Part shown: positions 21,775-26,761 of the stretch, one piece after another
Numbering within the stretch: position 1 is the stretch's first letter
Layout of the letters: each line of letters opens with the position of its first letter
Assembly (NCBI GenBank): GCA_030059675.1
Contig: JANVYQ010000005.1
Location: 32,001-96,000 of the forward strand
Length of the DNA stretch: 64,000 bases
DNA from: Candidatus Pelearchaeum maunauluense
Lineage (GTDB): Archaea > Thermoproteota > Nitrososphaeria_A > Caldarchaeales > Caldarchaeaceae
Direction: 5' to 3'
Made by a program: the position numbers and the translations under genes
The notes under the pieces: model-generated
Database searches by the model: none
Told to the model about the DNA's origin: nothing
Seen by the model: only the letters and a program-made list of their open reading frames with translations

Positions 21775-23485
21775 GCAGCTCCAACCCCGGTGGTAGTTTA
21801 ACCTCTGAGAGCCATTTGCCAGGTGGAACCATCGGAAAGACCATCTCCTCGCGGCCTATGGGGACGTCTATCGTTATGGCGGTGTTGCTGCGCACAGCTC
21901 TCTTGACGACGGTAGTCAGTTCCTCGTAGGAGTCAACCCTCACGGCTTCGACGCCGAAGGCTTCTGAGAGCTTTACTAGGTCTGTTTTGTCTGTGTAATC
22001 AACGTCCTTGAAGCGCTTCTGGTAGAACATATCCTGCCACTGCCTAACCATCCCCAGGGTTCTGTTGTCAAAGATTATCGTTATGATTGGTAGGTTGTAG
22101 TCGGCAATACATGCTAGTGTTTGGCATGTCATTAGGAAACTTCCGTCTCCATCTAGATTTACGACAGTTCTGTCTGGCGCTGCTGCTTTGGCTCCAAATG
22201 CCGCTGGTAGGCCGAAGCCCATGGTTCCGAGGCCGCAGCTACTAATGAAGCTGCTGGGAGTTCTAGACTTCCAGAAGAGTTGCGTCCACATCTGATGCTG
22301 CCCAACACCTGTGGTTACTATCGTGTCTGGTGGGAGTATGTTGTTGAGTAGTGAGATTACTTTCCACGAAGTCATTCGTGAGTTTCCTTCTTGGCTCATC
22401 ATGAATTCATCATAGGCCTCGCCTACCTCTTTAAACCGCCTTATGAGCGGGCTCTCTGGCCTTTTAGCCATAATATGCTTGATATAGTCTATCAGTTCGC
22501 GTAGTACTAGCTTCGCGTCTCCGTTGAGTGAGATTGTTGGTTTTACGTTCTTTCCTATTTCGCTGGAGTCTATGTCTATGTGGATTATCTTGCGGCCTCG
22601 CTCAAAGTCCTGTGCTGGTCCTATTGCTCTGTCTGAGAGTCTGGTTCCTACGCAGATTACTAGGTCTGACTCCATTATGGCTAGGTCTGCCTCTAAGCGG
22701 CCGTGCATTCCGACTACTCCTAAGACGAGTGGATGCGTCTCTGGGACTGATGATTTCCCAGGCGTTGTTGTTACTATTGGAGCGCCTATGAACTCGGCTA
22801 GCTCCAGAACCTCTTGTGTGGCGCCGCTGAAGAGGACTCCCCCGCCCGATAATATTACGGGTTTCTCCGCCTGGCTTATCGCCTTGGCTGCCTCCATTAT
22901 GCTATGCACGTCAGGCTCGCGTGGCCGTTGGTTGAAGAGCGGCTCAGGCATCACGTCCACATCGTCTTCCTCAATCTCTTCCTGCATAACGTCGCGGGGT
23001 ATGTCTAGCAGCGTAGGCCCAGGCCTGCCTGTCATGGCGACAGTGTAAGCGTTAACGAACTCCTGAACAAGGCGTCGCGAGTCTTTGACTGTCACGGCGT
23101 ATTTTATGTGGGGCAGGGTTAAGCCCACTATATCCGCCTCTTGGAAGGCGTCGGTTCCCATAAACGCCCTGACAACCTGCCCTGTTATGGCTAGAACTGG
23201 TATGCTGTCCATAGAGGCATCCACAAGCCCTGTTATGAGGTTCGTCGCCCCTGGGCCTGATGTCCCACTACATATTCCTGGCCTGTTCTTTATCCGTGCA
23301 TATCCCTCAGCCGCGTGAGCTGCTTGCTGCTCGTGGCGCATTAGGTAGCTGTTTATGTCAGCATCATAGAGAGCGTCGTAGAAGGGCATGTTAGCCCCTC
23401 CTGGTATGCCGAAGATTGTATCCACGCCCTTTCGTCGCATCTGCTTGATCAGTAGATCAACGCTCCTAGCCATCCCTATGACCAC
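21743..23485 (-). CDS. ilvB: Acetolactate synthase large subunit
   Basis: FGIPGGA, RHEQ.AAHAA, TSGPGATN, GTDAFQE, GVGQHQMW, GLGTMGFGLP, GDGSF..., LGMVRQWQ. Confidence 0.96.
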   Translation of the reverse strand: MVIGMARSVDLLIKQMRRKGVDTIFGIPGGANMPFYDALYDADINSYLMRHEQQAAHAAEGYARIKNRPGICSGTSGPGATNLITGLVDASMDSIPVLAITGQVVRAFMGTDAFQEADIVGLTLPHIKYAVTVKDSRRLVQEFVNAYTVAMTGRPGPTLLDIPRDVMQEEIEEDDVDVMPEPLFNQRPREPDVHSIMEAAKAISQAEKPVILSGGGVLFSGATQEVLELAEFIGAPIVTTTPGKSSVPETHPLVLGVVGMHGRLEADLAIMESDLVICVGTRLSDRAIGPAQDFERGRKIIHIDIDSSEIGKNVKPTISLNGDAKLVLRELIDYIKHIMAKRPESPLIRRFKEVGEAYDEFMMSQEGNSRMTSWKVISLLNNILPPDTIVTTGVGQHQMWTQLFWKSRTPSSFISSCGLGTMGFGLPAAFGAKAAAPDRTVVNLDGDGSFLMTCQTLACIADYNLPIITIIFDNRTLGMVRQWQDMFYQKRFKDVDYTDKTDLVKLSEAFGVEAVRVDSYEELTTVVKRAVRSNTAITIDVPIGREEMVFPMVPPGKWLSEVKLPPGLELHDKVSHIRTA

Positions 23486-25019
23486 TCTCCACCCTCATGT
23501 AGTTACTCTGGGAAAGCAACAACTGGTGAACCGCGCTCGCGACAGCGCTAGTAATAGCGGCTGCTGGGTCTTTATCCAAGCCGCGTCCAACGGTTTCCGT
23601 ATCCTTAATCCTTAGAATTACCTCAGCCTCCGCTGGGTGTCTCTCATCAAACATGCCTGAGAGAACTTTGTAATCAACCAACTGTACGTCGGCTATGCTT
23701 TCTACTGCTTTTAGCGCCGCCCTTAGGCTTGCCGTCACTGGGTTTGAGCCTGCGCCGCGGCCTGCGACTATCTCATGAGCTACTATAAGCTCGCAGGCTG
23801 CGTCGTATTCTCCATCCACCTTGCTTATGCTCAGCCTCCTAATGCTGGAGCGTTCTAGTGTCTGTTTTCCATAGACCTGCGTGGCTATTGAGAGCACGTC
23901 CTCCTCAGAGACCCTGCCTCCAGAGTCGCCTATCTCCTTGATTCGCGCGAGTATCTTGCGTAGCTTCTCCCGCTCTACCGTGAAGCCATACTCCTTGAGC
24001 AGGGCTTCTACGCCATGAGCTCCCGAATGCTTTCCAAATACTATCCTACGCCGCCTGCCGAAGGATTCTGGCATTACGGGCTCGTAGGTATGCGGGCTTC
24101 CGAGTATCCCATGAACGTGTATCCCGCTCTCGTGGGAGAAGGCATTATCCCCTACTATCGCCTTGTTCTTGGGGACTATGATGCCTGTGAGCTTCTCGAC
24201 GAGGCGGGATGTCTTGTATAGGTTTTCCAACCTGATATTCGTCTTCACGCCATAGAGGAAGTTGAGCGCAGAGACTATCTCCTCTAGGCTAGCGTTGCCA
24301 GCGCGCTCACCTATGCCGTTGATTGTGGCATGTATTATCTCGGCGCCAGCCTCCACGCCCGCGAGCGAGTTAGCTACAGCCAGGCCGAAATCATCATGAC
24401 AGTGGACGCTTACTGGGACCTTCACGTTCTCCTTAGTGAGCCTAACTAGGTAGCGCATAGCGTAGGGGAGCGCTGTTCCAACCGTGTCAGGAATGTCTAT
24501 ACTATCGGCACCTGCTTTTTCAACCTCCCTAAAGACACGCATCAGGAAAGAAGGCTCTGTCCGCGTGGCGTCTTCAGCGGAGAAATGGACAGTAACCCCA
24601 TGCTCCTTGGCGTACTCCACCATGCTCCGCGCCTTCTCCAGCGCCTCTTCACGGGTAAGCCGTAGCTTATGTTTCAAATGAATGTCTGAGGTCGCTATGA
24701 AGACATGTATCCAATCCACGTCAGCGTTTAGCGCTGCGTCTATGTCCATCTTCTCCGCACGCGCAAGAGCGCATATCTTGGCCTTCAGCTTCATGTTGGC
24801 GATGGTCTTGACAGCCTCCGCCTCGCCCTTAGAGACCAACGGAAAACCAGCCTCAATAATATCAACACCCAACTCATCAAGAGCCTCAGCAACCCTAATC
24901 TTGTCTTCAGGCTTCAACGCAGCGCCAGGCGTCTGCTCACCATCACGCAGCGTAGTGTCGAAGATATACACCCTCTCAGGAAGAAGATACTCTCTCTGGA
25001 GAAGATTCTTCCAGGCCAT
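23466..25019 (-). CDS. leuA: 2-isopropylmalate synthase (LeuA; CimA/citramalate synthase not excluded)
   Basis: DTTLRDGEQ, HCHDDFGLAVANS, GIGERAGN, HESGIH, GKHSG, C-terminal regulatory domain; SD GAGGTGA upstream of ATG 25019. Confidence 0.85.
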   Translation of the reverse strand: MAWKNLLQREYLLPERVYIFDTTLRDGEQTPGAALKPEDKIRVAEALDELGVDIIEAGFPLVSKGEAEAVKTIANMKLKAKICALARAEKMDIDAALNADVDWIHVFIATSDIHLKHKLRLTREEALEKARSMVEYAKEHGVTVHFSAEDATRTEPSFLMRVFREVEKAGADSIDIPDTVGTALPYAMRYLVRLTKENVKVPVSVHCHDDFGLAVANSLAGVEAGAEIIHATINGIGERAGNASLEEIVSALNFLYGVKTNIRLENLYKTSRLVEKLTGIIVPKNKAIVGDNAFSHESGIHVHGILGSPHTYEPVMPESFGRRRRIVFGKHSGAHGVEALLKEYGFTVEREKLRKILARIKEIGDSGGRVSEEDVLSIATQVYGKQTLERSSIRRLSISKVDGEYDAACELIVAHEIVAGRGAGSNPVTASLRAALKAVESIADVQLVDYKVLSGMFDERHPAEAEVILRIKDTETVGRGLDKDPAAAITSAVASAVHQLLLSQSNYMRVESGHRDG

Positions 25020-25112
25020 AAAATCACCTCTAGAGAATAATGAGTTTGAGGAGGAGACGGCCCTGAAGAAGGCTACTAGCATTTTCCAAATCGCGGCGAG
25101 CCGTTGGGCCAT

Positions 25113-25142
25113 TTACCGAGCGCGGTGAAGCAATAATCCCAC
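25113..25142 (-). promoter_or_regulatory. Putative Leu-rich leader peptide uORF (MGLLLHRAR*) of the leuA-ilvB-ilvN operon
   Basis: GTG GGA TTA TTG CTT CAC CGC GCT CGG TAA between a TATA box (CTTATATA, 25184-25177) and the leuA SD. Confidence 0.5.
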
Positions 25143-25198
25143 CCTCAGACTTGTAATCCCTAACGCTGTACAGAGCTATATAAGCATTGACGAGTTCT

Positions 25199-26761
25199 TC
25201 ATAGAGGGATGTTGCCGTGCTTCTTTGCTGGTCTGAATTCTTCTTTGTCGCGTAGCATGTCTAGGGCTTTTATGAGCTTGATGCGCGTCTCAGATGGTTC
25301 TATGACCTCATCTACCAAGCCCCGCTCGGCAGCCACATAGGGGTTGGCGAACTTTCTGCGATACTCCGCGGCCAGCTCACGCCGCTTGGCCTCTGGGTCT
25401 TGCGCAGAAGCTACCTCTTTCCTGAAGATTATGTTGATAGCTCCTTCGGGGCCCATAACCGCTATCTCGGCGGTTGGCCAGGCTAGGTTTATGTCTGCTC
25501 GCGAGTATTTGGAGCCCATGGCGCAGTAGGCGCCTCCATAGGCTTTACGTATGTTGACCGTTATCTTCGGGACTGTTGCTTCGCAGTATGCGTAGAGGAG
25601 CTTGCTTCCGTGCCTGATTATCCCGCCGTGCTCCTGCTCTATTCCTGGCATGTATCCTGGGACATCTACAAATGTGATTATTGGTATGTTGAAGCAGTCG
25701 CAGAATCTTATGAAGCGCGCGGCCTTATCGCTGGAGTTTATGTCCAGCACACCCGCCATGTGGAGCGGCTGGTTGGCCACAACTCCAACAGTATTCCCAT
25801 CAAGCCTACCAAAGCCCACAATAATGTTTTGCGCCCAGCCCGCGTGAACCTCCATAAAATCACCATCATCCAAGACCTCTAGGATTATCTGCTTCATGTC
25901 ATATGGCTTATACGGGTCTTCTGGAACTATGCTTTCTATTCCATCAAGCCTCCTGTCTGGCCTATCCTGCGGCTCCACGCGCGGAGGTAGCTCGCTGTTG
26001 TTGGACGGCAGGTAGGAGAGGAGGCGTCTAATCATCATTAGGCACTCCTCATCATCGGCCGCGGTGAAGTGCGCTACGCCGCTAATTTCAGCATGAACAT
26101 GAGCGCCTCCCAGCTCCTCAAACGACACCTCCTGCCCCAACGCTGCTTTCACCACATCAGGGCCTGTAACGAACATCGTGGCGGTTTTCTCCACCATGAA
26201 GATGAAGTCCGTCATGGCTGGGCTGTATACCGCACCGCCAGCGCATGGGCCCATTATGGCTGAAATCTGTGGAATTACGCCTGAGGCTAGTGTGTTTCTG
26301 AAGAATATCTCGCTATACGCGGCGAGGCTTGCTATCCCCTCCTGTATCCTCGCTCCTCCAGAGTCGTTTAGCCCTATGACGGGAGCGCCTGTCTTTAGGG
26401 CTAGGTCCATTATCTTACAGACCTTCTTCCCGAAGACCTCGCCTAGCGAGCCGCCCATCACCGTGAAGTCATGCGAGAAGACGAATACCGTTCTCCCATC
26501 TATCTTACCATATCCCGTAACTACTCCATCGCCGAGGTAGCGTCTCTCGGCCATGCCGAACTCAGTAGCCCTATGGACTGCGAACTTGTCAATCTCAACG
26601 AAGCTACCAGGGTCTAGGAGTATGTCCAGCCTTTCGCGGGCTGTGAGCTTCCCCTTAGCGTGCTGCTCCTCAATCTTCTTCACTCCTCCTCCAAGCTCCG
26701 CTTCGCGATTCATCTTGCGGAGACGTTCCAGCAGGTCTTCATGGAGCATGACGGCCAACAT
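25199..26761 (-). CDS. pccB: Acyl-CoA carboxylase carboxyltransferase subunit (propionyl-CoA carboxylase beta/methylmalonyl-CoA decarboxylase alpha)
   Basis: GKLTARER, DSGGARIQEG, GPCAGGAVYSPA, DVPGYMPG, RKAYGGAY, KKHGNIPL. Confidence 0.92.
   Translation of the reverse strand: MLAVMLHEDLLERLRKMNREAELGGGVKKIEEQHAKGKLTARERLDILLDPGSFVEIDKFAVHRATEFGMAERRYLGDGVVTGYGKIDGRTVFVFSHDFTVMGGSLGEVFGKKVCKIMDLALKTGAPVIGLNDSGGARIQEGIASLAAYSEIFFRNTLASGVIPQISAIMGPCAGGAVYSPAMTDFIFMVEKTATMFVTGPDVVKAALGQEVSFEELGGAHVHAEISGVAHFTAADDEECLMMIRRLLSYLPSNNSELPPRVEPQDRPDRRLDGIESIVPEDPYKPYDMKQIILEVLDDGDFMEVHAGWAQNIIVGFGRLDGNTVGVVANQPLHMAGVLDINSSDKAARFIRFCDCFNIPIITFVDVPGYMPGIEQEHGGIIRHGSKLLYAYCEATVPKITVNIRKAYGGAYCAMGSKYSRADINLAWPTAEIAVMGPEGAINIIFRKEVASAQDPEAKRRELAAEYRRKFANPYVAAERGLVDEVIEPSETRIKLIKALDMLRDKEEFRPAKKHGNIPL

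Follow-up and report, generated by a model that had tools for sequence, protein, structure and literature searches.

Sensing of amino acids by ribosomes that translate a leader peptide is a textbook bacterial mechanism. The enterobacterial leuL, ivbL, and ilvL leaders (Rfam Leu_leader, RF00512) are transcription attenuators of this type, in which the leader peptide carries a run of the operon's own amino-acid codons. In archaea, regulation of amino-acid synthesis is known mainly through transcription factors, and a full-text literature search, with supplements outside its scope, found no description of leader-peptide attenuation in this domain. Here, we analyze the leader of leuA, which heads a leuA-ilvB-ilvN operon, in a 64,000-nucleotide (nt) stretch of DNA from the hot-vent archaeon Candidatus Pelearchaeum maunauluense (contig JANVYQ010000005.1, positions 32,001–96,000). 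We refer to this whole stretch as the window; positions are counted from its first letter, and the features discussed lie on its minus strand. Comparison with related genomes indicates that the leuA leader probably encodes a translated peptide that senses leucine (Leu) or branched-chain amino acids, with the mechanistic details less certain than this general reading.

The closest described systems are bacterial. As presented by Seliverstov et al. (2005, PMC1262725), the actinobacterial LEU element is an upstream open reading frame (ORF) with a run of Leu codons before leuA, and these codons are complementary to the leuA Shine-Dalgarno (SD) sequence. That description contains no terminator and proposes action on translation initiation; its authors doubted leader-peptide attenuation and proposed a protein instead (PMC1262725). 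The polycysteine small ORFs (sORFs) of mycobacteria are described as cysteine-responsive translational attenuators (Canestrari et al., bioRxiv 10.1101/834739). In that account they are leaderless, start with AUG or GUG, and are demonstrated by mutation and proteomics.

A long open frame spans the leuA leader and ends in branched-chain codons

We compared 70 leuA upstream regions (L001–L070) from the class to which the window's species belongs (Caldarchaeales/Aigarchaeota). The class comprises a single order with four families and 76 species genomes, 69 of which have a leuA ortholog (E ≤ 1e-120), and the relatives carry the names Candidatus Pelearchaeum sp., Candidatus Caldarchaeum, and Candidatus Caldarchaeales. 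A core of TATTGCT plus a pyrimidine is present in 47 of the 70 leaders and in 11 of the 14 genera that have the ortholog. Read as ATT-GCT, the frame through this core stays free of stops as far as the leuA ribosome-binding site (RBS) in every one of the 47 leaders, over 24–47 codons, and likewise in four of four metagenome relatives. Measured by dinucleotide shuffles, this openness gives a product of P of 5.4e-7 for 11 genera with one representative each, and of 8.6e-13 for 22 lineages. In the control frame, TAT-TGC, stops fall at scattered positions, and 7 of the 47 leaders have none up to the end. The stop of the long frame lies at −12 to −19, overlapping or abutting the leuA SD, or at +11 in Caldarchaeum. 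In the window, the ORF counted from ATT covers 25134–25030 and ends with ..SSLLQGRLLLKLIIL and the stop codon.

The end of the long ORF has a distinctive composition. A run of Leu, Ile, and Val codons closes it in 8 of the 11 core-bearing genera (g1, g5, g8, and g10–g14) and also in g7, which has no core; the last residues before the stop read, for example, ..SLRILLLW, ..TMLLLLL, ..SLLLLLVVL, or ..ALVLLIIIIL. Across 25 lineage representatives, the last nine codons of the long frame are 34% Leu and 18% Ile plus Val. When these nucleotides are read in the two alternative frames, the shares are 17% and 4%, and 6% and 1%, respectively; genome-wide, Leu averages 10.2%, Ile 7.2%, and Val 7.9%. Ile and Val codons such as AUU, AUC, and GUA do not amount simply to a pyrimidine tract. 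In the window, the stretch with the Leu and Ile codon clusters (Table 1) is pyrimidine-rich and anti-SD-like. The mixture of the three amino acids fits the conserved gene order, as ilvB comes after leuA in 30 of 30 loci (L001–L030).

The coreless leaders of g7 carry a long frame that ends with ..LLLL and a stop at −14 in six of seven cases; in the seventh leader, the Leu tail does not share a frame with the conserved 5′ block. This block, GGTCGGTGAGCAAAGTGAGCCAACTCGA, is strongly conserved in the g7 leaders (L019–L026, L038) and takes the place of the core. It holds a short ORF starting at GTG (MSKVSQLE, then a stop) that overlaps, in the +1 frame, a long frame with terminal Leu runs, which is the two-frame layout of the core-bearing leaders in a different sequence.

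In the Caldarchaeum leaders (L006–L017, L154–L157), the long frame passes the leuA SD and start codon and stops 11 nt inside leuA, at TAA, TGA, or TAG depending on the species, and T4–T5 tracts lie ahead of the SD. These leaders may represent a variant mechanism.

An invariant core and an SD-like strand mark the 5′ end of the leader

TATTGCT is invariant in 24 of 24 lineage representatives, and the base that follows is always a pyrimidine. A purine-rich, SD-like GGTGG or GAGTGA stands 1–6 nt ahead of the core, the 5′ motif is kept across three families, and a TATA-like box is found 39–49 nt upstream of the core in 42 of the 47 core-bearing leaders. Beyond the 7-nt core and the SD-like strand, leaders are unalignable between genera. 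Two candidate start codons overlap inside the core, ATT in the long frame (25134–25132) and TTG in a short frame (25133–25131); neither frame alone explains why a pyrimidine follows the core or why GCT, and not merely GCN, is invariant.

For the long frame, the invariant ATT is the only near-cognate start in the predicted transcript of several lineages. The frame is closed by a TGA three codons upstream of the core in g12 and by a stop six codons upstream in g3a and g3d, and GTG is found in it only in g5, g8b/c, and g3c. The long leader ORF therefore most likely begins at AUU, with GUG a possible start where it is in frame.

The 23 leaders that lack the core belong to g7 (7), g15 (13), and family f3 (3), and in g15 leuA lies directly behind another gene. 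Looking outside the order, we placed 77 of 80 named archaeal leuA loci (all except L088, L093, and L119) and found the core only in the seven Caldarchaeales loci; four of 80 metagenome leuA loci have it, all four Caldarchaeum-like. A regulon-wide operator was considered and rejected, as a stricter form of the core pattern occurs a single time in the window's genome. A relaxed form, counted across the 76 genomes, was as frequent as its reversed control and thus uninformative on this point.

Two observations concern other upstream regions. A short contig of a g8 genome (G034:C25:635-904) carries the leader motif of family f1 with a leuA fragment and is probably Caldarchaeum-like contamination. 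The leuA genes of Methanobacterium (L087, L089, L092, L096, L100, L103, and others) share an upstream element, caattttttta ... gtcaaaccat.aggggtcttccc, directly before the ATG.

The 5′ purine strand pairs with the strand of the codon run

The 5′ purine strand of the leader pairs with a pyrimidine strand located 25–55 nt before the leuA start, forming a helix that we call P1. In the window, the 3′ strand of P1 falls inside the Leu codon run of the long ORF. The bases flanking the helix change jointly between genera, from GUCUGAGG / CCUCAGAC in g1 to CACGAGGG / CCCUCGUG in g4, and the partner strands read AGAGGAGU / ACUCCUCU in g3b, GCGAAGGG / CCCUUCGC in g5, GGCGUGGUGGGA / UCCCRCCAYGCU in g14, GGUGGGGG / CCCCCAC in g11, and GCCGGUGGU / GCCGCCGGC in g8. 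When strands are combined within and between leaders, the P1 duplex has an energy of −17.5 kcal/mol with the own partner versus −14.9 kcal/mol with foreign ones (permutation p = 5e-5, 20 lineages); the own partner ranks first in 5 of the 20 lineages and among the top five in 11. Consensus folds within genera (alifold) contain the same helix with few two-sided changes, so the support for P1 rests on the between-genus test.

The initial annotation of this stretch, made from the DNA of the window, had pointed out several mutually exclusive pairings in the leader, some of them with the leuA SD. The strand pairings are present in the sequence, and the one between the start region of a short upstream ORF (uORF) and the pyrimidine strand is the one that covaries; the pairing of the pyrimidine strand with the leuA SD is without such support, as detailed in the Discussion. 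A tandem of AUGGCCC and ACGGCUC (25098–25112), each complementary to GGGCCGU (25057–25063), is also present. The sister species has ACGGCCC twice, two differences that keep the pairs, and the arrangement is confined to the window's genus (two sequences). UCACC, which follows the short uORF's Leu codons and had been singled out for its complementarity to the SD, is not conserved among relatives.

The idea that SD availability is controlled receives support from competition in silico. Masking the 5′-most 18 nt, which an initiating ribosome would cover, changes the cost of opening the leuA RBS by a mean of +2.23 kcal/mol, compared with −0.33 kcal/mol for 104 other masked segments, and in 16 of 23 lineages no other segment has so large an effect. 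When the nucleotides immediately ahead of the RBS are masked instead, the opening cost falls by 1.17 kcal/mol. A footprint-style version of the masking likewise shows competition. The Leu-codon strand is complementary to the leuA SD, and anti-SD-like Leu codons occur 0–40 nt before it. By this modeling, the leader SD, the pyrimidine strand, and the leuA SD would compete with one another, as the initial annotation proposed. Covariation with the leuA SD and unusual masking of its RBS were not found among these leaders.

A short overlapping frame is conserved as nucleotides

The sensor itself had been placed by the initial annotation in a 9-codon uORF with three consecutive, different Leu codons. 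This uORF, from GTG 25142 to TAA 25113 with TTA, TTG, and CTT, reads as described, and so does an in-frame CTG at 25148. Across the order, the expectation of a conserved Leu-run uORF holds for a longer ORF in the −1 frame with a Leu/Ile/Val tail and fails for the 9-codon GTG uORF. In the same way, the general idea of a translated leader with Leu codons ahead of leuA-ilvB-ilvN, acting by SD/anti-SD pairings and not by a terminator, is strongly supported by the comparison, and the particular sensor proposed is not order-wide. Judged from the alignments, the order-wide sensor-like unit would be the longer, overlapping −1-frame ORF with its Leu/Ile/Val run at the leuA RBS.

The short frame is nonetheless a regular feature of the leader. 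Read as TTG-CTY, it meets a stop 5–10 codons after the core in 47 of 47 leaders, and when the codons of the long frame are permuted with that frame kept open, so early a stop has a product of P of 1.5e-5 over 11 genera. This is one point for the view that the short uORF is the Leu sensor, with a GUG or UUG start, x-L-L, a stop after 5–10 codons, and a ribosome stalled on the rare codons UUA, UUG, or CUU that picks between helices. Family f1 retains M-(R/G)-L-L-L (in g1, g2, g4, and most of g3); L008 has a synonymous change from TTA to CTA, and L004 a start-to-start change from GTG to TTG. No Leu codons are rarer than TTA and TTG, which account for 6% and 9% of the total for this amino acid, and in Caldarchaeum the Leu codons are in the short frame only. 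Yet this view seems unlikely. As GTG does not keep a constant distance from the core, it shares the frame of TTG-CTY only in some genera; in g5, g8, g12, and part of g3 (g3c) it does not. The first "Leu" codon is NTA (TTA, CTA, ATA, or GTA) and hence Leu, Ile, or Val, and the peptide would read M-L-G-A-L-N in g5 and M-S-K-V-S-Q-L-E in g7. The codons are invariant as nucleotides and not as synonymous Leu codons, which makes the "LLL" of the short uORF a by-product of the invariant TATTGCTY core. Moreover, a ribosome stalled here would cover the 5′ strand. In silico, covering that strand closes the leuA RBS, an effect with the wrong sign for a biosynthetic operon.

A frameshift from the short into the long frame was also considered and rejected, as no slippery pairing fits.

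Organization of the locus and the start of leuA

The leader lies between a carboxyltransferase gene, which ends at 25199, and leuA, which is followed by a gene for an ilvB-type thiamine pyrophosphate (TPP) enzyme. The TATA-like box behind the carboxyltransferase gene predicts a transcription start near 25148–25153. The features of the locus are collected in Table 1.

Table 1 Features of the leuA leader and its surroundings in the window
Feature	Position	Strand	Sequence or basis
TATA-like promoter box	25177..25183	−	TTATATA; read in sequence
Purine-rich 5′ strand	25138..25150	−	GUCUGAGG-GUGGG; SD-like element of the leader ORFs and 5′ strand of helix P1
Short uORF	25113..25142	−	GTG GGA TTA TTG CTT CAC CGC GCT CGG TAA; V/M-G-L-L-L-H-R-A-R
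Long leader ORF	25030..25137	−	(I)IASPRSVNGPTARRDLENASSLLQGRLLLKLIIL, then stop; TAG 25032-25030 overlaps leuA SD
Invariant core	25128..25135	−	T-ATT-GCT-T; 24/24 representatives, 47/70 leaders
Leu/Ile codon clusters	25033..25071	−	CTT CTT 25071-25066; CTC CTC CTC 25056-25048; then AAA CTC ATT ATT CTC
Helix P1, 3′ strand	25051-25044	−	CCUCAAAC; pairs with 25150-25143, inside CTC CTC CTC AAA C codons
leuA SD	25030-25023	−	GAGGTGAT; perfect 8-nt complement of 16S rRNA 3′ end ..GGATCACCTCCT
leuA	23466..25019	−	2-isopropylmalate synthase with LeuA allosteric domain; Pfam HMGL-like, HCS_D2, LeuA_dimer
ilvB	23485-21743	−	Follows leuA; TPP enzyme domains (Pfam)

A mechanical list of ORFs starts leuA at ATG 25112, which gives a protein of 548 amino acids with a 31-residue N-terminal extension across the leader. 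Orthologs from 41 related genomes match LeuA only from residue 31–32, the one exception being a sister species (Candidatus Pelearchaeum sp., 96% identity), which has ACG in place of the in-frame ATG 25112. A tblastn search with LeuA residues 32–548 aligned from the first residue in 30 of 30 loci. The extension is thus ruled out, and the start of leuA is ATG 25019, since orthologs align from that methionine (Met 32) and ATG 25112 is unconserved. Gene callers likely over-extend leuA across the leader (25019–25112), a probable mis-annotation that the leader analysis corrects.

With about 130 nt, the leader is long for this genome, where, in a crude genome-wide scan, the distance from the nearest TATA-like box to the start codon peaks at 30–39 nt; the unusual length had been noted in the initial annotation, as had the lack of a U-tailed terminator. 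Indeed, there are no terminator-like sites in 24800–25400, and the longest U run ahead of leuA is U4. A search of 24000–26000 against Rfam (cmscan, E ≤ 10) returned nothing in the leader and three weak snoRNA-like matches, all inside leuA. A search for sequencing runs that contain this sequence listed three DNA runs, with small shares, and no RNA run. Among the 26 tRNAs that aragorn identified in the incomplete genome there was no tRNA-Leu gene, and codon-tRNA arguments were therefore dropped. A genome-wide scan for other leader ORFs that end in amino-acid runs was noisy and missed leuA itself; its best Leu match was the mis-started N-terminus of a MoeA-like gene.

Two further observations were made in passing. 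One leuA paralog that was examined adjoins another gene. The 16S rRNA gene is split over two contigs (G000 C18:5-1390 and C10:57608-58376; L152 and L153); in the C18 part, model positions 830–1467 are spread over 1386 nt, as though interrupted by a large insertion, for example an rRNA intron.

Discussion

Conserved in these leaders are the long ORF, its Leu/Ile/Val tail, the stop at the RBS, the 5′ module, and P1. We infer translation of the leader, an AUU start, stalling, and masking of the leuA SD. In the mechanism that we propose, the 5′ SD-like purine strand would recruit ribosomes to the invariant UAUUGCUY, and the leader ORF would then be translated across the whole leader, up to its closing Leu (plus Ile/Val) codons, which reach the leuA SD or end shortly ahead of it. 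The pyrimidine-rich codons of this run could pair with either purine strand, the leader's own SD (forming P1) or the leuA SD. When charged Leu-tRNA is plentiful, ribosomes would run through and terminate on the RBS, leaving the pyrimidine strand free for whichever purine strand is unoccupied; with the 5′ strand occupied by initiating ribosomes, the pyrimidine strand could mask the leuA RBS. When Leu-tRNA is scarce, a ribosome would stall on the Leu codons and cover the masking strand, the leuA site would stay open, and translation of leuA-ilvB-ilvN would rise. The output of the leader is presumably on translation, without a terminator.

In its complete form, the proposal is an archaeal, terminator-free translational attenuator in which the leader SD, a Leu-codon anti-SD, and the leuA SD compete. 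Two overlapping frames would supply a long, AUU-started peptide with a Leu/Ile/Val tail and an early-stopping UUG/GUG ORF, frame choice or traffic would be part of the switch, and the device would be Caldarchaeales-wide and independent of bacterial attenuators. We put this full version forward tentatively, as a possibility that falls short of being probable.

Several results weigh against a leader-peptide sensor or against particular steps of it. AUU is the only universal in-frame start candidate of the long frame; we know of no archaeon in which AUU is an established start codon, and a literature search gave nothing on AUU starts in archaea among the titles listed. The long-frame Leu run is weak or absent in g2, g3 (Caldarchaeum), and g4, where Leu codons are found in the short frame only. 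The overlap of stop and SD is partly automatic, because the TGA within TGAGGTGA belongs to the full SD. Regarding the RNA, P1 pairs poorly in 5 of the 20 lineages, and the own-versus-foreign test of the leuA SD with the pyrimidine strand is flat (p = 0.48). Opening the leuA RBS is not unusually costly: it takes 10.8 kcal/mol at 37 °C, compared with 8.0 ± 3.1 kcal/mol for 74 other SD-led genes, and 3.1 versus 3.2 kcal/mol at 75 °C. The fold of the whole leader is no more stable than expected (z = +0.97), 167 of 200 shuffles being at least as stable. The geometry is a further difficulty: if stalling took place at the run's first Leu codon, the edge of the ribosome would fall −4 to +16 nt from the RBS, and the ribosome might therefore occlude the leuA site instead of freeing it. 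Finally, substitutions among close relatives are spread evenly over codon positions 1, 2, and 3 (50/56/56). This lack of codon-position bias indicates that the peptide sequence is not under selection, only its openness, and makes a functional micropeptide unlikely. Indels among close relatives are frame-preserving, as in the extra CTT of L024 and the extra ATT of L002 (the sister of the window's species), and even substitutions combined with in-frame indels are the pattern to be expected if it is the open frame and the regulatory codons of the leader that count.

Some of these points would suit a long uORF that senses no amino acid and serves as a coupling or RBS-clearing device, with termination and reinitiation at the stop/SD setting the level of leuA and P1 limiting leader initiation. 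Such a device would be content with an unconserved peptide, with a stop that in every lineage either shares bases with the SD or sits 11 nt into leuA, with the lack of a clear Leu run in Caldarchaeum, g2, and g4, and with a leuA RBS that is not unusually masked. We nevertheless judge it improbable in view of the tail, which is 52% Leu, Ile, and Val, compared with about 25% in the genome, and is so in the translated frame only. In addition, the module occurs in the genome only ahead of leuA-ilvB, and the Leu tail recurs in g7 behind a different 5′ block.

That the 5′ motif is a regulator-binding site, either a protein operator just downstream of the transcription start or a ligand- or tRNA-binding RNA, with the open frame incidental, is very improbable: the core is conserved as nucleotides (TATTGCT plus a pyrimidine) and keeps a fixed distance from the TATA box, at which archaeal repressors often bind, but GGTG stands anywhere from 1 to 6 nt ahead of the core, dyad symmetry is absent from the motif, the covariation of P1 indicates a role at the RNA level, chance is a very unlikely cause of one frame being open in all 47 leaders, and the stable, conserved aptamer of a riboswitch or T-box is not seen in a leader whose fold is not unusually stable, which does not align across genera, and which has no Rfam match at E ≤ 10.

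Returning to a leader peptide that senses branched-chain amino acids, its existence would mean that the gauging of metabolites by translating ribosomes extends to archaea whose mRNAs are mostly leaderless, that such a gauge can work without a terminator, and that AUU may serve as a regulated start codon. The leader offers a concrete, mutable element of about 130 nt.

The leuA leader shares with leuL-type attenuators a small leader ORF with a run of regulatory codons, if its translation is taken from conservation, and its mix of Leu, Ile, and Val matches leuA-ilvBN. In contrast to them, it has neither a terminator hairpin with a U tract nor an Rfam match, and its output is presumably translational; it falls outside the terminator-based leuL class. 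The mycobacterial polycysteine sORFs, in the form in which they are described (10.1101/834739), likewise have no terminator; they differ in being leaderless, whereas the Caldarchaeales ORF is SD-led and probably has a non-canonical start. The actinobacterial LEU element, as its authors depict it (PMC1262725), is bacterial and has a conserved pseudoknot. The Caldarchaeales leader, modeled here with nested structures, has P1 with its own SD and two conserved overlapping frames. The two have in common a Leu-run uORF directly ahead of leuA, Leu codons complementary to the SD, and the lack of a terminator. By analogy with these two published accounts, the Caldarchaeales leader looks like a device that works in the manner of the actinobacterial LEU element and the mycobacterial polycysteine sORFs.

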